Positions 2,840 to 64,000 of a stretch of DNA of 64,000 nucleotides are shown one piece after another (the first letter of the stretch is position 1; every line of letters begins with the position of its first letter). The notes under the pieces are model-generated. The model saw only the letters and a list, made by a program, of their open reading frames with translations, was not told where the DNA came from and did not search any database. A program made the translations under genes and the position numbers. The stretch is taken from positions 12,195,508 to 12,259,507 of the forward strand of contig NC_057751.1 of NCBI RefSeq assembly GCF_004010195.1, in the 5' to 3' direction. This DNA is from Chiloscyllium plagiosum. Lineage: Eukaryota.

Positions 2840-3900
2840 AAGGCGTTGGCTTAATGGCACTGTCGCTGATCTATTAACATAGAAAATTCAGCTCATGTTC
2901 TGGGGGTACAAATCCCTCCATGGCAGAAGGTGGAATTTGAATTCAAAAATGATGATCATTAAACCATGAGCTAATTGAGTAGAATTGAATTAGCTTTTTG
3001 CCACATGTACGCATAAGTTTACAAGTTGCCACTTACGGCACCATGTTAGGTACGAAGGTGCCTAGGTACAGATTCTTGAGTACAAGTCTGCAGGGAAAAA
3101 AAACGAAATTACAAAAAAGAGAAATTATTCCATTTCATGAGTCTGGGCTTGAGGAGCCGGCCCGCTATGTTGGAATCCAACCATGCTGAAGAAAAGCTGC
3201 ATGGAGTCACAGACTGACGCCAAAACCACCAGAAGGAAATCCAGACCGACACTGAAAGTCACCACCAAACATGCTGAAAGGAGTCCCAGGCCGGTCATTG
3301 GAATCCCAGCCCTGGATCCACTTTGTCTTTAAAACCACTGCTGAACCAACTTAGTCAAAGGACCCACTAGGATGTGTCCACGAGAAACCACTGGATCCAC
3401 ACTAGCATTATCCACCATAGTAGCCTCTTGGAGCCTCCTTCTTTACTCAAAGGTCGCCAAAAGAAGGTCAGATGAACTTGATGCTAGAACAAAAATATGA
3501 AGAAGAAAGGATGCAGCAGGCCTGGTGATAGAAGCAGAAGAGCCATGAGCTTGAACACTTATTAGCCCAAATGCATTGCTGGGGCAAAGCCCACCTGGCT
3601 CACTAGTGTCCTTCATGAAAGGAAATCTAGGAGAAAATGAGGACTGCAGATGCTGGAGATCAGAGTTGAACGTGTGGTGCTGGAAAAGCGCAGCAGGTCA
3701 GGCAGCATCCGAGGAGCAGGAGAATTGATGTCCCTTCACTAGGAAAGGAAATCTGCCACTCTCACCTTGTCTAGCCTAAATGTGATTCCAGACCCAAAGC
3801 AATGTGACTGACTCTAAACACTCAGTTGAAGAGCAGCTTGGGATGGTCAATAAGTGCTGGCCAGCCAGTGATACCCATATCCCTCAAGGGGATTAAAAAT
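2840..3900 (+). mobile_element. Shark SINE split by later insertions (head ~2840-2975, body/tail ~3580-3900)
   Basis: Head segment aatccctccatggcagaaggtggaatttgaattc. The body ggaaatctgcc...gtgattccagaccc...aatgtgactgactct...gctggccagccagtgat also occurs at 11178-11335 and, reversed, at ~24570-25000. Confidence 0.55.
3629..3742 (-). mobile_element. Short Penelope-like terminal fragment (family A) with 12-bp TSD
   Basis: Same terminus as at 15603 and 43933 (gagaaaatgaggactgcagatgctggag...gtggtgctggaaaag). Flanked by gaaaggaaatct at 3617-3628 and 3743-3754. Confidence 0.75.
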
Positions 3901-5361: not shown

Positions 5362-6510
5362 GAACATAGAACATTACAGCGCAGTACCGGCCTTTTGGCC
5401 CTCGATGCTGCACCAACCTGTGAAATCAATCTGAAGCCCATCTAACCTATACTATTCCATTCTCATCCATATGCCTATCCAAAGACCATTTAAATGCCCT
5501 TAGAGTTGGCGAATCTACTACTGTTGCAGGCAGTGCATTCCACATCCCTACTACTCTCTGAGTAGGGAAACTATCTCTGACATTTGCTCTATATCTATCA
5601 CCCCTCAATTTAAAGCTATGTCACCTCGTGCTGTCCATCACCATCTGAGGAAAAAGGCTCTCACTGTCTACTGTATCTATTCTGATTATCTTATATGTTT
5701 CAATTGAGTAATTTCTCAACCTTCTTCACTCTATTGAAAACAGCCTCAAGTCCCTTAGCCTTCCCTCATAAGACCTTCCCTCTGTTCTAGGCAACTCCCA
5801 AGTAAATCTCCTCTGAACCCTTTCCAAAGCTTTGACATCCTTCGTCTAATGAGGTGACCAGAACTGTTCACAATACTCCAAGTGTGGCCACACCAGAGTT
5901 TTGCACAGCTGCAGCATGACCTCTACTACTAAAAGCTAACACACCATATGCCTTCTTAACAACCCTATCACTTGGGTATCAACTTTCAAAAATCTATGTA
6001 CATGGACATCGAGATCTCTCTGCTCATCTAAACTACCAAGAATCTTACCATTATTCCAGTACTCTGCATTCTAGTTATTCCTTCCAAAGTGAATCATCTC
6101 ACACTTTTCCACATAAAACTCCATTTGCCAACTCTAGCCCAGCTCTGCAGCTTATCTATGCCCAGCTGTAACCTACAATATCCTTCTGCACTATCCACCA
6201 CTCTACTGACCTTAGTGTCATCTGCAAATTTACTAGATAAAAACAATGACTGCAAATGCTGGCAACCAGATTCTGGATTAGTGGTGCTGGAAGAGCACAG
6301 CAGTTCAGGCAGCATCTGAGGAGCAGTAAAATCGACGTTTCAGGAAATGCATATACACCACATCCACCATACTTTTAAACACCAACACCAACCAACCTGA
6401 GCTTTGCCCTCAACCACCTGTTTGGTCACCTTCTCAGAGAGCTCAATAAGGTTTGTGAGGCATGACCTACCCTTCACAATACTGTGTTGACTATCCCTAA
6501 TCAACATATT
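5362..6510 (-). mobile_element. CR1 LINE 3' fragment
   Basis: SKFADDTKVSRVVDSAEGY in ORF 6094..6315; CR1-type 3' end with (tatgttc)n-like tail at ~5362. Confidence 0.8.
6237..6345 (-). mobile_element. PLE terminal fragment (same subfamily as 61088-61308) inserted in CR1
   Basis: aaaaacaatgactgcaaatgctgg...gattctggattagtggtgctggaagagcacagcagttcaggcagcatc...atcgacgtttcagg is nearly identical to the arms of the 61-kb element. Confidence 0.75.
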
Positions 6511-7346: not shown

Positions 7347-9261
7347 AGAGTGTAAGTATAAGTGTGTGTGTGCCTAAGAGAGAGCATGTGTATGAGAGGG
7401 TCGGCGTGAATGTGTGAGTATATAAGAATGTGTATGTGTGAGAGTGTTTGTTTGAGTGTGTATAGTGTGGTGGGATCACCTGTAGTCTGACACGAACCCA
7501 AGGTCCCGGTTGAGGCCATCCTCATGGGTACCGAACTTGGCTATCAGCCTCTGTTCTGTCACTCTGTGTTGCTGAGTATCCTGAAGTGCACCTTGGAGGA
7601 TGGTCACCCAAAGGTCTGAGGCTGAACATTCCTGACTGCTGAAATGTTCCCCGGCTGGGAGGGAACATCCCTGATTGGCAATTGCTGCTCAATGTCCATT
7701 CATCCGTTGTCGTAGCATCTGCTTGATCTCACCAATGTACCATGCCTTGGGGAAACCTTGCCTGCAGCATATGAGATAGACAACATAGGCCGAGTCACAT
7801 GAATGCCTGCCATGTACATGGTGAGTGGTGTCCTCACGTGTAATGTCGACACTCTGACACTTCTTGCAGTGGTTGCCATGACAGGGTTGTGTGGTGTTGT
7901 AGTAGATGTTCACAGTTTGCTGCGAACAATGATCTGTTTAAGGTTTGGTGGTTCTTTTAAAGGTGAGAAGTGGAGGCATGGGGAAGGTCTTGGCAAGGTG
8001 TTAATTCTCATCGATAATGCATTGCAGGCTGCAAAGAACATGGCACAGTTTTTCCACTCCCGAGAATTACTTGACAACAATGGGTATCATATTGGTCGCA
8101 TCCCATGTCTGTCTCCTGAGGAGGTAATTACAGTTTCTCTTTGTAGCACATCAGAACTGGCGATCGATGAGTTGAGCATCGTACCTTGTTCTTATGAGGG
8201 TGTCCTTCAGCACCTTCAGGCATCCATCGTTTTGCTCCTCATTTGAACAGATCCTGTGTATGCATACAGCTTGTCCATAGGGTATGGATGTTTTAATATG
8301 TTTTAGTGTGGAAGCTGGAGAAGTGTAGTATTGTGAGGTTATCCGTGGGTTTGCAGTAGAGTGAGGTACTGAGGTGCCCATCCTTGATGGAGATGAGTGT
8401 GTCCAAGAATGAGATAGGTGCTAAAGAGTAGTTCATGGTAAGTCTGATGGTGGAACGAAACTTGTTGATATCACTGTGTAGTTGTTTCAGTAACTCCTTG
8501 CCATGGTTCCAGAAGAAGGAAATGTTGTTGATATATCTCGGGTACAGTGCTGGTTGGCGGTCCTGTGCAGCAACAAAGTCTTGTTCGAACTTGTGCATGA
8601 AAATGTTGGCATATTGGGGTGCAAATCTGGTCCCCATGGCTGTTGTGTGTGTCTGGATGAAGAACTAGTTGTCAAAGGTGAAAACATTCAGGTCAAAGAT
8701 GAAGCAGATGAGTTGTAGAATGGTGCTCAGAGATTGGCAGTTGTTGGTATTGAGTACTGAGGCTATTGCAGCGATGCCATCATTGTGGAGTATGCTGGTG
8801 TAGAGTGCTGAAACGTCCATTGTGTCGAGGAATGTTCCCGTTTCGACTGGTTCGTGGATGCTGAGTTTCTGTAAGAAATTGTAGTGTCGCGACAAAAGCT
8901 CAGGGTCCCTGTACAATGGGTTTCAAGATGCCCTTGAAATATCCAGAGAGGTTCTCACACAGGGTTTTGTTGCCTGACATGATTGGAAGATCAGGTGTGT
9001 TGGCTTTGTGTATCTTTGGAAGGCAGTAGAAGTACCATGGGATGAGAGTGCATAGGGAGCTCTGTAGGACTGGATGACTGGATCAAAAGTCTTGATTAAT
9101 CTGTTTAGTCCATGGGTGTGCTCTTTGGTCAGATCAGCCAATAGTTGCCTGTAATGTTCCTGGTTGTTCAGTTGTCAGTACACTTCCTTGCAGTAGTCCA
9201 CTCTACTCTGAATGATGATGGCTCCTCCTTTATCTGCTGGTTTGATGACAATGTTGTGATT

Positions 9262-11492: not shown

Positions 11493-12993
11493 TGTAAAGT
11501 GTGGTGCTGGAAAAGCACAATAGGTCAGGCAACATCCAAGAAGCAGGAGAGTCAACTTCTCGGGCATAAGACCTTCATCAGGAATGTGCCAGGGCGAAGG
11601 GAGCTGCGAGATAAATAAGAGGGGAGTGGGGCTGGGAGGCGGGAGGTAGCTAGGAAAGTGATAGGTGGATGCAGGTGGGGGTGATGGTGATAGGTTGGAG
11701 TGGAGAGTACAGGTGGGAAGGAAGATGGACAGGTAGGACAGTTCAAGAGGGCAGTGCCGAGTTGGAGGGTTGAATCTCGGATGAGGTGGGGGAGGGGAAA
11801 TGAGGAAACTGGCGAAATCGACATTGATGCTATGTGGTTGAAGGATCCCTGGGTGGAAGATGAGGCATTCTTCCTCTGGGCATTGGGTGGCTAAGATTTG
11901 TTGAGGGAGGAGGCCCAGGACTTGCATGTCCTTGGTGGAATGGGAGGGGGGGTGTTGAAGTGGTCAGCCTCAGGGCAGTGGGGTTATTTGTTGCATGTGT
12001 TCCGGAGATGTTCTCTGAAACGTTCTGCAAGTTGGTGTCCTATCTCCCCAACGTAGAGGAGACCACATCAAGAGCAACGGACATAGTAGATGAGGTGTTT
12101 GGATGTGCAGGAAAACCTCTGCCGGATGTGAAGGATCCTTTGGGGCCTTGGATGGTGGTGAGAGGGCAGGTGCGGGTGCAGGTTTTATACCTCTTGCGGT
12201 GGCAAGGGAAGGTACTGGGAGTGGAGGGTGGGTTGGTGGTGTGCTCGGACCTAACGAAGGTGTCGTGGAGGGAATGGTCTCTGTGGAATGCTGATAGGGG
12301 TGGGGAAGGAAATATATCTCTAGCGGTGGGGTCTGATTAAAGGTGGTGGAAAAGGCAGGTGATGGTTGTTGTATCTGGAGATTGATCAGGTGGAAGGTGA
12401 GGACTAGTGGGAGGGTCTATCTTTGTTGCTGTTGGAGAGGTGGGGTTAAAGAATGAAGATGTGGCAACTGAAGAAGTTGTGATGGAAGGAATTGTTGACC
12501 ACATGATCTACTGTGTCTGTTGCTCTTGATGTGGTCTCCTCTACATTGGGGAGACAAGATGCCAACTCGTGGGACATTTCAGGGATCATCTCTGGGACAC
12601 ATGCCCCAAACAACCCCACCATCCTGTGGCAGACCATTTCAACTCTCTCCTCTCGCTCCGCCAAGTTCATGCAAGTCCTGAACCTCCTGCATTGCCAAAT
12701 CCAAGCCACCCTACGACTGGAGGAAGAATGCCTGATCTTCCGCCTTGGGACCCTCTCACCACACGGCATCAATGTTGATTTCACCAGTTTCCTCTTCTCC
12801 CCTCCCCCCACCTCATCCCAGATCCAACCCTCCAACTCAGAGCTGCCTACCTGTCCATCTTCCTTCCCAACTATCCACTCTACCTTCCACTCCAACCTAT
12901 CGCTGTCACTTTCCAAAATGTCGACTCTCCTGTTCCTCGGACCAGATGTGCATTTTGATTCTGATCTCCAGCATCTGCAATTCTCACTTCCTC
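11493..12993. mobile_element. Family-A PLE insertion made of two oppositely oriented 3' arms (GIY-YIG region plus terminus)
   Basis: Minus arm ~11493-12470 and plus arm ~12510-12993 both translate to MQVL.LL...EECLIF..G.L.P..IN.DF. Flanked by cattgttggggttgagt (11476-11492) and cattataggggttgagt (12994-13010). Confidence 0.8.
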
Positions 12994-15602: not shown

Positions 15603-18158
15603 CGAAAGTAAGGACTGCAGATGCTGGAGATTAGAGTCCAGAGTGTGGTGCTGGAAACGCACAGCAGGTCAGTCAGTGTCCGAGGAGCTGGAAAATCAAT
15701 TAATGAGGCTGCGAGCATTGGTGAGGAGAGATAAGAGCCCTATAGGTGGATGAAGGTGAGGGTAATGGTGATAGGTCAGAGGGAAGAGTGGGGCAGATAG
15801 GTGAGATGGACAGGTGGGACAGGTCATGAGGGCGGTGCTGAGCTGGAAGGGTGGAACAGGTATAAGGTGCGGGGAGGGGAAATCAAGAAACTGGTGAAAT
15901 CCACATTGATGCCATGCGATTGGAGAGTCCCGAGGCGGAAGATCTTCCTCCAGGCATTGGGTGGTTAGGGAGTGTGGTTAGGGAGTGGCGATGGAGGAGG
16001 CCAAGGACCTGCATGTCCTTGACGGAGCGGGAGGGGGAGTTGAAGTGCTCGGCCACGGGGCTGTGGGGTTGGTTGGTGCGGGTGTTCTCTGAAGCGCTCT
16101 GCAAGTAGGCGTCCTTCCTCCCCAATGCACAGGAGACTGCATCGGGGGCAATGGATACGGTAAATGACATGTGAGGAAGTGCAAGTGAAACCTTGATGGA
16201 TATGGAAGGCTGTTTTGGGGGCCTTGGATGGAGGTAAGGGGAGAGGTGTGGGGGCAGGTTTTGCAATTCCTGCGGTGGCAGGGGAAGGTGTCGGGAGGGG
16301 AGGGTGGACGGTTGGGGGGCATGGACCCGACAAGGCAGTTGCGGAGCTAACTGTCTTTACGGAATGCGGATGGGGGTGGGGAGGGAAATATAATTCAGGT
16401 GGTGGGGTCTGTTTGTAGGTAGCAAAAATGGCAGAGGATGATGCGATGTATATGCAGGTAGGTGAGGACAGGGCGAAGGGTTCTGGCCTCATCTTCACCA
16501 TGGACAACCAGTGCCCATACACCTCTATCCGCCATGACCAGGGCCTCCAAGCCCACCGGTTCTTCCTCTCCCGACATCTCCACCAGTTCCCTTCCACTGA
16601 CACTCTTATTTGGTTGGCTGAACTGATCCTCACCCTCAATAATTTCTCCTTCGAATCCTCCCACTTCCTCCAGATGAAAGAGGAAGCCAAGGGCACCCAC
16701 ATGGGTCCCAGCTATGCCTGTCTCTTTGTTGGCTACATGGAACAATCCATCTTCCGTAGTTGCACCGGCACCATTCCCCACCTTTTCCTCTGCTACATTG
16801 ATGACTGCATCAGTGCCACCTTGTACTCCCACAAGGAGGTGAACAGTTAATCAACTTCACCAACACATTCCACCCGACCTTAAATTCACTGGACCATCTC
16901 AGACAACTCTCTCCCCTTCCTGGATCTCTCCATCTCCATCAAGTGTGACAGACTCAACATTGACATCTTCTACAAACCCACCGACTCCCACAGCTACCTG
17001 GATTATATCTCCACCCACCCTGCCTCCTGTAAAAATGCTATCTCTTATTCCCAATTCCTCCGCCTCTACCACATCTGCTTCCAGGAGGACCAGTTCCACC
17101 AAAGAACACACCAGATGGCTTCCTTCTTTGAAGACCGCAATTTCCCCTCCCACGCAGTTGATGATGCCCTCCAACGCATCTCATCCACTTCCTGCACCTT
17201 CGCTGTCAAACCCCATTCCTTCAACTGCAATAAGGACAGAACCCCCTGGTCCTCACCTTCCACCCCACCAAGCTTTGCACACATTGCATCATCCTCCGTC
17301 ATTCCCACCACCCACAAACGGACCCCACCACCAGAGATATATTTCCCTCTCCATTGCTATCCCCTTTCCATAATGACCATTCTCTCCNNNNNNNNNNNNN
17401 NNNNNNNNNNNNNNNNNNNNNNNNNNNNNNNNNNNNNTCCCGGCATCTTCTCCTGCCACCACAGGAATTGCTAAACCTGCCCCCACACCTCCCCCTCACC
17501 TCCACCCAAGGCCCAAAAGGAGCCTCCCACATCCATCAAAGTTTCACCTGCACTGCCACACATGTCATTTACTGCATCCTTTTCTCCTGATGTGGTCTTC
17601 TCGACACTGGGGACACAGGACGCCTACTCGCAGAGTGCTTCAGAGAAGATCTCCGGGACACCCACACCAATCAACCCCACAGCCCTGTGGCCGAACACTT
17701 CAACTCCCCCTCCCACTCTGCCAAGGACATGCAGGTCCTGGGCCTCCTCCATTGCCACTCCCTTCCCACCCACGTCTGGAGGAAGAATGCCTTGGCTTCC
17801 GCCTTGTTTCCCTCCAACCCCAGGGCATCAATGTGGATTTCACCAGTTTCTTCATTTTCCCACTCTCACCTTATCCAAGTTCCATCCTTACAGCTCAGTG
17901 CCACCCTCATAACCAGTCCCATCTGTTCATTTTCCTTCCACCCTCCCCTCCGACCTATGCCAATTACCCCCACCTCCATCCACCTATTGCACCCTCAGCT
18001 ACCATCCACACAGCCCCAACACCTCTCATTTTTCTCTCCATCTCCGAAGCTCCCAGGCTCCATTCCTGATGATAGATGTTTGCCCGAAATTTTGATTTTC
18101 CTGCTCTTCGGATGTTGTCTAACCTGCTGTGCTTTTCCAGCACCACACTCTAGAGGTC
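15603..18158. mobile_element. Family-A Penelope-like element with inverted arms and 9-bp TSD
   Basis: Plus arm ~16480-18158 has the RT (MGPSYACLFVGYMEQ...YIDDC) and GIY-YIG region. Minus arm 15603-~16470 has GIY-YIG (HVIYRIHCPRCSLLCIGE...ERFREH). TSD cgtcacctg at 15594-15602 and 18159-18167. Confidence 0.88.
17388..17437. other. Assembly gap (50 N)
   Basis: Run of n characters. Confidence 0.99.
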
Positions 18159-24577: not shown

Positions 24578-24869
24578 ATTCTTTCATGACAAGACCTGCA
24601 TTTATTGCCCATTGTCAATTGTTCAGAGGGCAGTTAAGCCGACCACATTGCCTTGGTTATGGTGTCACATCCTCGCAAGACTAGGTAAGGATGGCAGATT
24701 TGAAACTTTATTGCTGGAACAGCACAGCAGGTCAGGCAGCATCCAATTCTTTCATGACAAGACCTGCATTTATTGCCCATTGTCAATTGTTCAGAGGGCA
24801 GTTAAGCCTACCACATTGCCTTGGTTATGGTGTTACATCCTCGCAAGACTAGGTAAGGATGGCAGATTT
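24578..24869. repeat. 124-bp direct duplication flanking a 44-bp PLE terminal fragment
   Basis: 24578-24701 matches 24746-24869 with 2 mismatches. The spacer contains gctggaacagcacagcaggtcaggcagcatcc. Confidence 0.9.
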
Positions 24870-43932: not shown

Positions 43933-44154
43933 AGGACGTGAGGATGGCAGATGCTGGAGGTCAGAGTCGAGAGTGTGGTGCTGGAAAAGCACAGCTGGTA
44001 CAGGCAGCATCCGAGGAGCATGAAAATCGATGTTTTAGGCATAAGCCCTGCATCAGGAATCCTGATGAAGGGCTTATGCCCGAAATGTTGACTCTCGTGT
44101 TCCTCGGATGCTGCCTGACCTGCTGTGCTTTTCTAGCACCACACTCTCGAAAAC
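43933..44154. mobile_element. Palindromic ~220-bp family-A PLE-derived mini-element centred on a hammerhead motif
   Basis: Arms are inverted around catcagg-aat-cctgatg (44051-44067). TSD tgcctttgg (43924-43932) / tgtctttgg (44155-44163). Confidence 0.85.
44058..44092 (+). ncRNA. Minimal type I hammerhead ribozyme motif (family A)
   Basis: CUGAUGA A GGGC-UUAU-GCCC GAAA UGUU GAC: intact core boxes and a perfect 4-bp stem II. Confidence 0.65.
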
Positions 44155-59890: not shown

Positions 59891-61087
59891 AAAAGCTATT
59901 TCATGTCAAAAGGCTGTCCTCTTCAACAGAGTTCAAACATACAAAAGAATAAAGAATTAATATACCTAACTGTTGTTCCAATCTTTAAATCAAACATTTT
60001 CCCATGAGATAGGAATAAATAAACACATGAAAAAAAAAAGAGATAGGACGCAGTTTGTGTGTAGCATTAACACAGGCATCAATTGGTCCTTTTGTAGGAA
60101 GCATTTCATATGCACTTCCATTATTAAATTTAAAATCTGGCAATCTGAGGTAGATCCATATATTTGAAAGACACCTTGGTAAATATACATACTTACTCAA
60201 TTGATCGTCTTGATTGGGGACTAATGGTTATTTGTTCTTGGTGAAGTTCAAGATATTTTAAGTCAGTGTTCATCAAATCAGAGGACTTTGACAAGTTTCA
60301 GAAAAGGTATAAACTTAACATATTTGAAAGTTCAAAGCATTAGAGTGATAGCTGGAAGGTTAAATTCTATTTTACAAAACAGAAGTCCCAGTACAATCTG
60401 AGATCAAGGTAACGTCATATACACACACTACAAGTACATACACGTGTGTTTAATTATAATGACAATATTCAAAGGAAGTTGACAACTTGCTTCAGGCAAC
60501 CTCAGGCAGACTATATGCTTTAAAAGAAACATGTCATATAATACTCGTGTCACAGATGATAATCCAGATCACAGAATGTTTGAGCAATAATTTGATATGT
60601 TCAGTTTTCATCATGACCTTGGACAACGATAGCATTTTTTGATACAAAGACAAACAGCACGTGTTTTAATATCGTGCTTCACATTTGTCAGTCATGGCTG
60701 TCCCTATGGTGATTTGACAGAAAGTATCAAAATTACCGGAAGGTCATCTTTAATATATTCTTGATGGTGTTAATTGTGGCAGCTTAAATTCTTGAAAATA
60801 ATGTTAAGCACTGCCGTGCTCAACTTCATTCTTGATGACACTGGCAAGTAGCAGTTAATTACACTCCATGCACTGTGCTCCCGCGGTAATTGATTTGGCT
60901 TGGAAACTATTGATCCAATTTGAACTGGTCTGTGTAAGACAGATGAAAGGCAAGCTCATTTAATCATCAAATAAATTTTAGACAAGAACAGCAGATTCAA
61001 ATTTGACTTATCAATGTGTACATAAGAGAAAGGTGGTTGGAATCGCTTAACAGATACCTTCCAACCATTTAACTCGGTAACAATGTG

Positions 61088-61308
61088 GCAGATTCTGGAT
61101 TAGTGGTGCTGGAAGAGCACAGCAGTTCAGGCAGCATCCAAGGAGCTTCGAAATCGACGTTTCAGGCAAAAGCCCTTCATCAGGAATATGGGCTTTTGCC
61201 CGAAACGTCGATTTCGAAGCTCCTTAGATGCTGCCTGAACTGCTGTGCTCTTCCAGGACCACTAATCCAGAATCTGGTTTCCAGCATCTGCAGTCATTGT
61301 TTTTACCT
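61088..61308. mobile_element. Palindromic 221-bp PLE-derived mini-element with hammerhead motif and 10-bp TSD
   Basis: 61089-61175 is inverted against 61190-61276 with few mismatches. Perfect TSD taacaatgtg at 61078-61087 and 61309-61318. Confidence 0.9.
61153..61187 (-). ncRNA. Minimal type I hammerhead ribozyme motif, sense to ZMAT4 pre-mRNA
   Basis: Minus strand AUUC CUGAUGA A GGGC-UUUU-GCCU GAAA CGUC GAU: intact boxes, palindromic ACGU stem III, GUC triplet. Stem I is very short. Confidence 0.7.
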
Positions 61309-64000
61309 TAACAATGTGACAGACAACAGAAGAAAGGGCTTTGTTGTCTTTCAATTTTGATCCACCTTTCAATATCACATTTGAACTTCAAGGTGCATTA
61401 CTCTTGTCCAAACTACCCCCTATCCTTGAATTCCAATGGTGCTCAAAGATTGAGCAAACTCAGTCTTGACAATACTCATTGACTGCATTTCACTAGCCCT
61501 CTGCACTTTCAAAGGTTCACAATCCTCTGAGTGAAGAAATTAGACCAGGTTGGCTGGTCCTATTTGTCCTTCTCCTTCCTAGTTTTCCAGCTGGCAGAAG
61601 CAAATTCTCAGGACCCATCCACTCAAAATCTCCAACATTTGATATGTTCCCGTGAGTTCATCTCCAATCATCTGAACTCCAGAGGAAATAGCCCATTCTT
61701 CTAAGTTTCTTCTGAGGACAGCTGTCTCAGCGCAAGACTAAATCTACTCAACTGCTAGCCGCATTTCTTCGGGCAAGCAAACTACAAAGGGGTTGAATGG
61801 CAGAGGAGACTCCATGTGTTGAGTGACCTACGGTCTGTTCCAATATCTTATGGTATCATCACATGTACTGAGAACTTGGTCTATGAACACACACAGAGTG
61901 AAATCCAATAAAATCAGAGATAACAGTAATATTTGTACAAATTTCATGAAGCTACAATGATGGTGATCAAGGAAACTGACAACTTGCAACAGGCAGCCCC
62001 ATAGCTGAAGGCTGAACATCACACTGTTGCGGAGAGAAACAGCAAACTATAAGCCATAGAGAATTGTGTCACATTGCTAAGAAGACTAACAATTTGCAGA
62101 GTACATGCTGTGGTTCCACCGATGCCCTGCATAACTCTTCCAAAATTTATTATTACTTTCAAACCCCAACAGGATAAAAGCTAATATACATTCTGGCTTG
62201 TTATTTCCTTGCTGTATTTACACATGATGTTATGATCCCTGCAGAGAGAAAAGACTAATGAATGCATCAAATGATTATCAAGAAAACCAGTGAACTAAAA
62301 CTTCCCTTTATTTGGCTTTTACTCAAAAAATCAATTGTAAGTCAACGGACAAATTGCGGTTTCATATCAACCATAAATTATACGTTAGATCGCAGACACA
62401 ATAAAGTCAAAAGTCAACGATTTACTTTCGAGTCCACTCAACATGCATGGCAATGACTTCAAAGCTCTGAATTCTCTCCAGTAGAATTTATGCATTTTTT
62501 TTTGAGGGCTTAGACTGATTCCCTATTGACAACAGCCAAACAACCCCAGTTCGCAGATACGGTCTTCACCAAAATGCTGTATGCAAGCAAAAGCTCAATT
62601 CTGCTTTGAACATGTCGATGGTGTGAATTAAATAATCTTATCACCCAACAAACTGAAACAACTGCACCAACTGTATATTTGCCTTTACTCAGATCTGGGA
62701 TTCAGTTTGTACTGCACCATTCAGATCTGAGTTTCAAAGGCTCTGTGTTTTCTTTATCTGCATTAAACTCATGTCAGGCTCCTCTGAAACTTTAAATTTC
62801 TCTTGCCATTCCGGTTTTAGTTTACCTAGACACCAGAAAGTTTGGATTCATTTCACTTAGCCTAAGTTTCTGTTTCAGTTCCAATTCAAATCTGTCAGAA
62901 AAAACTATAAACTTTGAAATTATGTATTCCATCATTATGAACTTTGTATGTTTCTAGGAAATGTTGTAAGATCAAAATTATATTAGGTTTTGAACGGAAT
63001 TATTTCACCATGTTGTACGTGATGTAATATTCATCTAGCTGACACCGTTATGTTCCCTTGACTTTAATCACTACTGTCCTCTTTGCATTTTGTAAACTAA
63101 AATAGCATCAATTCTACTGAGTAAGAAAAATAGTAGCCACAGTTCTGCTTTAAGTTGTTCTTTAATTGATGTGTTCAAGTTGTTAATATTCCTAAGAATA
63201 ATTAAATCCAGAACTTTGAGAATCAGAGATAAAAAGAAATCACTTGGCCCATCAAAGCAGATCTCTTTCATGCATTAACTCTCCCACCATGGGATCTAAT
63301 TATGCTTGAGTGAACTCCAAATTCTTCGTTTGCCTTGTTTGTAAATTATTTCACACATCTATCACAGATTCCTCTGTTACTAAAAACCACTTTATTTCAC
63401 CACAGTAACAACTGTATCTGTATCTCTGTTGCTCTCCCTTTCTGGCACCAATATCCTTATTTCTGTTTGTATGATTTAGAGGCCTGACTTCTCCAACAGT
63501 AACCTAGCTAGCCAAAAAAGGTAATTTTTCCTGAAGTAATTGTTCCACATTAATTATTCACTGAATTCTACTGATGTCTCTTGGTCCTATTTCCTTGCTT
63601 TACTTTGCCGAAATAATCTGGATTTAATTTATCTCTAGCGTTTAATATTTTGCATGCTCAAAGTGAAATCTGTGAAAAATATTTAGCATGTTGCTTTAAT
63701 TTGCTTCACTTTTCTTAACATTTTTATTCCAATAGAGTTAGGTTACTCCAGTATTTCTAAGAGACGTTAGGTAATTATAAACAGACTCAAGAACCACTCT
63801 TATAAATGCTCTTGCAAAAAATAATATATTCTGAACAAATTTCCATTGTCTCCAAGACTAGCAAGCTACGTTGTCCTGAAACATGGCATTTTGGTGCCTG
63901 TGAAATGATGGCTGGTAGGTTTTAAAATAACAGATTGGTTTAGATATATGGTTGATCATTGATGCTTGAAATGAAGCAACTGATCTGCTGATCCACTGTT

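Follow-up and report, generated by a model that had tools for sequence, protein, structure and literature searches.

Two inverted Penelope-like termini form a hairpin in an intron

What is a short, non-coding hairpin that carries a hammerhead ribozyme motif: a mobile element in its own right, or something left behind when another element inserted? The question is raised by a locus near one end of a 64,000-nt stretch of the shark Chiloscyllium plagiosum genome (contig NC_057751.1, positions 12,195,508 to 12,259,507; hereafter the window, in whose coordinates positions are given). An earlier note on this DNA had described a 221-bp insert bounded by an exact 10-bp duplication, and we confirmed both features in the window sequence, with direct repeats at 61078–61087 and 61309–61318 enclosing the 221 bp. 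The target-site duplication (TSD) admits an equally good reading of 15 bp that includes one substitution, in which the left copy runs to 61092 and the right copy to 61323; the repeats are identified by sequence and by the single copy at an empty site in organism C (see below). The longer reading fits the family better because 16 of the 23 TSDs measured are 13–15 bp long and the short arms of family members begin mostly at element position 35–39, and by this comparison the true TSD of the insert may be 15 bp.

Within the insert, two stretches of 87 nt (61089–61175 and 61190–61276) are 97% complementary, with mismatches at three of 87 sites, and fold far past chance (z = -24.7). Both arms proved to be pLTRs of a Penelope-like element (PLE) encoding reverse transcriptase (RT) and GIY-YIG domains, as expected from their description as two inverted Penelope-type termini. 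The short arm (61088–61188, minus strand) is an inverted pLTR copy without a tail; numbered from the tail end, it spans element positions 33 (or 37) through 132, and its PLE sense is on the minus strand. The hinge, at 61189, is a single base that falls outside both arms when the insert is compared with family copies. The long arm has its PLE sense on the plus strand; its paired part (61190–61276) runs from pLTR position 119 to 33, beginning inside the hammerhead motif without CUGAUGA, and it extends 32 nt further (61277–61308, plus strand; ~30 nt by the first estimate). Counts of termini and the available text of PMC8557442, PMC3846280 and PMC11167929 identify this one-sided, 32-nt extension as the known PLE "tail". 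Element positions 120–132 are thus found in the short arm only and positions 1–32 in the long arm only. When tested as a PLE inverted-pLTR unit, the insert was found to have an inverted 5'-truncated copy, a 30–40-bp tail at one end and a TSD; inverted 5'-truncated copies with a tail of this size at one end are typical of PLEs in the available portions of PMC8557442, PMC3846280, PMC2377424 and PMC8969392.

The minus strand carries zinc-finger exons near 38.4 and 2.6 kb of the window and, on the other side, 13 and 32 kb past the insert. Because such exons flank it on both sides, the insert is intronic, in an intron of ~35 kb. At the level of protein family, the exons encode matrin/JAZ-type zinc fingers. 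The minus strand had been taken as the one transcribed for ZMAT4; the strand holds, and the gene is presumably ZMAT4, a name that agrees with the exon sequences.

The window contains other PLE sequences. A second hairpin stub, at 43947–44150, belongs to a related, older PLE family; one of its arms is tailed, and its hinge is nearly symmetric and lies at the same hammerhead edge. Six more PLE termini are single-arm (6235–6347, 3634–3730, 11501–11588, 15610–15697, 18062–18146 and 24712–24746), the one at 6235–6347 being of the same family as the insert, and a fragment at 7692–7937 (minus strand), which has a Cys-rich linker, resembles the GIY-YIG region of another PLE family.

The parent element is abundant and encodes RT and GIY-YIG domains

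The 33-nt tail end of the element has 13,334 exact matches in the genome, and longer family copies run into a GIY-YIG coding region. In one long copy, L151, a single frame encodes an RT domain (PF00078) with a GIY-YIG domain (PF01541) at the C terminus and is followed by a pLTR that is 96.8% like the short arm; the short arm is 96–97% identical to the pLTRs of the RT-bearing copies L151 and L159. Both domain matches in L151 (RVT_1, E 2.8e-6; GIY-YIG, E 6.5e-4) are slightly under the Pfam curated cut-offs, and the RVT_1 match in another copy, L032, is above the cut-off. Homologues have both domains, and the nearest named proteins come from Chiloscyllium punctatum. L159 is organized as pLTR-RT-pLTR: its RT is flanked by two copies of the arm in direct orientation, separated by ~5 kb, with an N gap; among the long copies examined, none was seen to be a gap-free, intact parent. 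The suspicion that the insert looks like a MITE (miniature inverted-repeat transposable element) yet derives from a retrotransposon was right, its origin being an RT and GIY-YIG PLE.

Compared with the description in the available text of PMC8557442, the L151 translation has the CCHH residues, the two cysteines of which lie between GIY and YIG. Its linker upstream of GIY-YIG reads CX4CxxC, and a CX2-5CxxC linker is a criterion for Neptune/Nematis-type PLEs in the same source; by motif, the translated sequence points to a parent of the Neptune or Nematis type.

Three further observations concern individual copies. The parent frame of L071 and L159 is uninterrupted across the hammerhead, pLTR and tail and on into the beginning of the ORF, and the tail is coding-frame sequence too. 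Right behind the tail of the 5' pLTR in L159 (6810–6960 of that locus) is nested a hairpin stub of another PLE family with its own duplication. At L060, a PLE 3' fragment adjoins sequence that resembles large-subunit rRNA.

The hammerhead is probably a passenger

The minimal type I hammerhead motif of the insert lies at 61152–61187 on the minus strand. It is laid out as a weak stem I (AUUC/GAUU), CUGAUGA, an extra A, stem II (GGGC-UUUU-GCCU) and GAAAC-GUC, with a predicted cut between 61156 and 61155, and the motif of the family agrees with the minimal type of PLEs in the available text of PMC4209133. This ribozyme had been called intact. The core (CUGANGA, GAAA and NUH, 61183–61156) is indeed present on the minus strand, but the G10.1-C11.1 pair is lost: 61164 is a U at 11.1, which leaves a G10.1-U11.1 wobble, and 123 of the 142 copies examined have a C there. 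The plus-strand arm is without CUGAUGA, and the insert offers no second same-strand core as a dimer partner. Minimal PLE hammerheads are reported to be inactive as monomers and weak as dimers (PMC4209133, available text). A scan of the window with Rfam at the gathering score returned no matches, which is no evidence against a minimal hammerhead.

Computed folding energies are -173 kcal/mol for the hairpin and -3.8 kcal/mol for the hammerhead helices, and the pairing probability of stem II in the whole insert is 0.0; on the host-gene strand, the antisense arm is made before the hammerhead arm. In these models, the hammerhead of this insert is predicted to be sequestered in the hairpin and inactive. 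It is probably a passenger, brought along in the pLTR, and to call the element "built around a hammerhead" overstates the role of a motif that is part of the pLTR, mutated and predicted to be buried.

Hairpin stubs have two fixed outer ends and, as a rule, one tail

To place the insert among its relatives, we used an unselected sample of 90 consecutive termini on one contig (C1; the first 90 of 100 listed), picked by tail and not by hinge. These comprised 31 simple hairpins, 16 inserts called single-arm (a very short second arm being present in two) and 43 that were long, gapped or unresolved. The outer ends lie at two fixed points ~35 nt apart, a tail end and a tail-less end, one per arm, and the inner ends vary. 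Compared with the long arm, the short arm extends deeper into the element in 15 of the 31 hairpins, less deep in 10, and to within 5 nt in six.

A scripted count found exactly one tail in 22 of 24 hairpins selected by hinge, the two exceptions being one damaged tail and one match in flanking DNA. Among copies picked at the hammerhead, 15 of 30 have the tail, and the one-tail rule departs from independence with p = 2e-5. Single inserts with a TSD (L174) and a long copy (L151) likewise have tail-less ends, and the tail-less site therefore works alone. The two arms share a subfamily block in 44 of 49 pairs (a set that includes L013, a spurious match, and L012, a complex locus), as against 29% between elements, and none of 10,000 permutations came as close.

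These observations bear on how the insert arose. That it is a PLE stub made at insertion is close to certain. It was likely assembled in a single insertion event and is likely not mobile as a unit. We further propose, as a probable mechanism, that it formed by dual priming. The PLE protein would nick the target in a stagger, 10–15 bp apart, and each 3'-OH would prime reverse transcription within the element RNA, one cDNA starting at the tail site and the other at the tail-less site. Both would end after ~100–130 nt, often at the 5' edge of the hammerhead, perhaps a 5' end of the RNA; these cDNA ends would then be joined with little trimming, and fill-in would give the TSD. An anole PLE protein cuts and extends both strands in vitro, and two internal RT start sites bracket the tail (PMC11167929, available text). 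Dual priming on one RNA-protein complex explains the one-tail rule, the concordance of the arms, their asymmetry and the tail-less single inserts. Taken as a whole, the statement that the insert is a stub of an abundant PLE, two 5'-truncated pLTR copies placed head to head by dual priming, is the one we favor with some confidence.

The earlier suggestion of a stereotyped, abortive product of PLE integration comes close to this. The stereotypy is partial: it applies to the fixed outer ends, and the inner ends differ between copies and have a hot zone at the 5' edge of the hammerhead.

Inner ends pile up at the 5' edge of the hammerhead

The hinges are not random. Per 100 nt at risk, we counted 5.7 arm ends at positions 128–136 (21 ends), 1.0 at 61–127 (59 ends) and 1.2 at 137–170 (10 ends), an approximately five-fold pile-up (p = 7e-9 against 61–127 and 2e-5 against 137–170), in which short-arm ends were counted in simple hairpins only and are thus biased toward short ones. 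The long arms alone gave 3.5 at 128–136, 0.7–2.7 before it and 0.8 after it. Nine of the 31 short arms end at 130–131, the 5' edge of helix I, and the placement of the fold-back point at this edge holds for the class as well as for the insert.

An RNA 5' end at position 131 would explain the pile-up, and the sequence there fits an initiator consensus. A reverse-transcribed cap, seen as an extra G before 131, was not supported at ~24 junctions read by eye (G 7, A 7, C 10), about six of the 30 loci examined being ordinary continuations. Genome counts at position 131 (4,156 of 20,361 preceded by a non-T base), set against 1,476 at position 129, give weak support, since both templated-C subfamilies and point changes confound them. 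At short palindromes, microhomology may contribute to the peak.

Hammerhead cleavage was rejected as the cause of the hinges: the predicted cut is at 99/100, the ends cluster at 128–136, and ~2 of 31 short arms begin at 99 (L053 and L056).

Self-copying and repeated insertion account less well for the stubs

The main alternative to dual priming is that a single cDNA, primed from the tail site, folds back and copies itself, that the endonuclease resolves the product at the tail boundary, and that central deletions follow. Self-priming has been proposed for inverted pLTRs (PMC3846280) and endonuclease resolution for the tail (PMC8557442), in the available text of both. We consider this route possible, though doubtful. 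It accounts readily for the one-tail rule, nearly symmetric hinges are frequent (one such pattern is matched by 455 loci), and the arms share their subfamily, and even private variants (for example in L131 and L143), in 44 of 49 pairs. This concordance is what self-copying predicts; under dual priming, a single RNA or identical RNAs must be copied two times. However, the short arm has sequence missing from the long arm in this insert and in the 15 of 31 hairpins noted above, so that a second event is needed each time. Such asymmetry could come from later deletions at the center of a perfect palindrome, and the inner ends of long and short arms are weakly correlated (rho 0.34, p 0.06), which leans slightly toward a shared original hinge. 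Against self-copying also stand the tail-less single inserts with a TSD and the anole protein, with its extension of both strands and its two start sites on either side of the tail (PMC11167929, available text). Finally, the arms of L134 clearly belong to two subfamilies, and those of L045 do so partly; the mixed arms of L134 are therefore not obtainable by self-copying, and both hairpins likely record two RNA templates in one event. "Fold-back", when meant as plain self-copying, is thus a poor fit to an insert in which each arm has sequence missing from the other.

In six complex inserts (L005, L012, L017, L071, L092 and L104), pLTR pieces are joined to the first 10–100 nt located behind the tail, a pattern suggestive of repeated template jumping.

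We also considered two separate insertions at one place, or a longer inverted PLE insertion later shortened by internal deletion. Inverted insertions of greater length, their arms separated by hundreds of bases, do exist (for example L033, L093 and L109), as do nested insertions (L159). Both arms of the insert nevertheless lie inside one TSD, arms are concordant in subfamily, and single-arm and two-arm inserts share the positions at which their ends pile up, making either history improbable.

The hinge recurs without being inherited

If the hairpin spread as a unit, its copies should share a hinge by descent, and in the unselected sample 30 of 31 hairpin hinges are distinct. The hinge string of the insert occurs in the genome twice exactly and 41 times with one mismatch (43 loci at no more than one mismatch). 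The other exact match, L121, has its tail on the opposite arm and a different subfamily block; among the one-mismatch loci, the eight of 41 inspected are not uniform in subfamily, in the length of the arms or in the side that has the tail. The insert itself has three private substitutions. Judged by these sequences, its hinge recurs but is not inherited, and the insert is not a member of a propagating family. The idea of a non-autonomous, ribozyme-bearing hairpin that the PLE protein retrotransposes whole after its transcription, the first of two options in the earlier note, thus failed the hinge test set for it and, despite the 43 look-alike loci and the great frequency of hairpins (31 of 90 termini), is very improbable and largely refuted for this insert, whose hammerhead is moreover mutated and predicted to be sequestered.

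Nor does the insert behave as a MITE. Length and internal structure are not shared by descent, and matching terminal inverted repeats with a transposase partner are absent: the tail makes the termini uneven, and the parent is an RT element.

An empty site in a relative

An empty orthologous site, proposed earlier as a check, was found in organism C, where a contig joins 61077 directly to 61309 with ~380–400 letters on each side; its flanks differ from the window at 22 of 777 letters. The flanks of organism B differ at 20 of 834 letters, and its contigs enter the arms by 26 and 23 letters, like those of organism A and under our 31-letter rule for bridging. From these contig sequences, the insert is likely shared with organism B, and it probably predates a species split. 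The insert had been described as young, which is overstated for one whose arms differ at three of 87 sites and which organism B likely carries. In the right flank, the window differs from all three DNA runs compared by a 7-bp indel at 61498–61502.

Relation to known elements and significance

An inverted pLTR with a one-sided tail is a layout already published, and the insert is explained in outline by it. In the available text of PMC8557442 and PMC3846280, insertion units of endonuclease-bearing PLEs, including Pen2a_Av of Adineta vaga, have the same inverted pLTR, head-to-head layout and one-sided tail; the tail is 31 bp in Pen2a_Av (PMC3846280) and 32 nt here, and the TSDs of rotifer units, at 9–10 bp, are similar in length to that of the insert. 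Unlike those units, the insert has no ORF and its arms are cut to ~100–120 nt, which makes it MITE-like, and the clustering of inner ends at the 5' edge of the hammerhead is not reported in the available portions of these papers. Poseidon PAc of Anolis carolinensis likewise has a hammerhead ~110–125 nt upstream of its 3' end and two ends that bracket the tail, whereas the CX2-5CxxC linker of the shark parent is missing from Penelope/Poseidon; the available text of the PAc study (PMC11167929) gives no explanation of inverted products.

The metazoan minimal PLE hammerheads of PMC4209133 (available text) have the same extra base between 9 and 10.1, the palindromic 15.2-16.2, a short helix I and no helix III, and motif pairs 100–700 bp apart on opposite strands were also noted there; the insert differs in having lost G10.1-C11.1 and in lacking a second same-strand core for a dimer. 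With MITEs, as portrayed in the available part of PMC8969392, it shares a short, non-coding form and inverted arms, but it has no uniform length or hinge, its termini are uneven, its TSD is long and variable, and its parent encodes an RT and not a transposase. Non-LTR retrozymes (bioRxiv 10.64898/2026.07.22.740005, available text) have a PLE-derived hammerhead in common with the insert, which consists of two head-to-head arms with one core and not of a head-to-tail tandem array. In the main texts available to our literature search, neither these shark stubs nor dual priming by PLEs is described, and the available text of PMC8557442 calls the formation of inverted repeats by PLEs undefined.

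The locus itself is minor, one dead intronic stub among thousands, and such stubs should be annotated as PLE fragments rather than MITEs or ribozyme elements. The class has modest importance: models of how PLEs form inverted repeats are constrained by the one-tail rule, by the common subfamily of the two arms and by the pile-up of ends at the hammerhead edge, all of which are testable in an existing in vitro system. We tentatively suggest that the hairpins might record the very step that makes inverted PLE ends, in which one RNA-protein complex produces two short, "strong-stop"-like cDNAs from both cut strands at two start sites, the cDNAs tend to run off at an RNA 5' end by helix I, and they are then joined. 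If this reading is true, the thousands of copies in one shark genome would provide a statistical readout of PLE integration.
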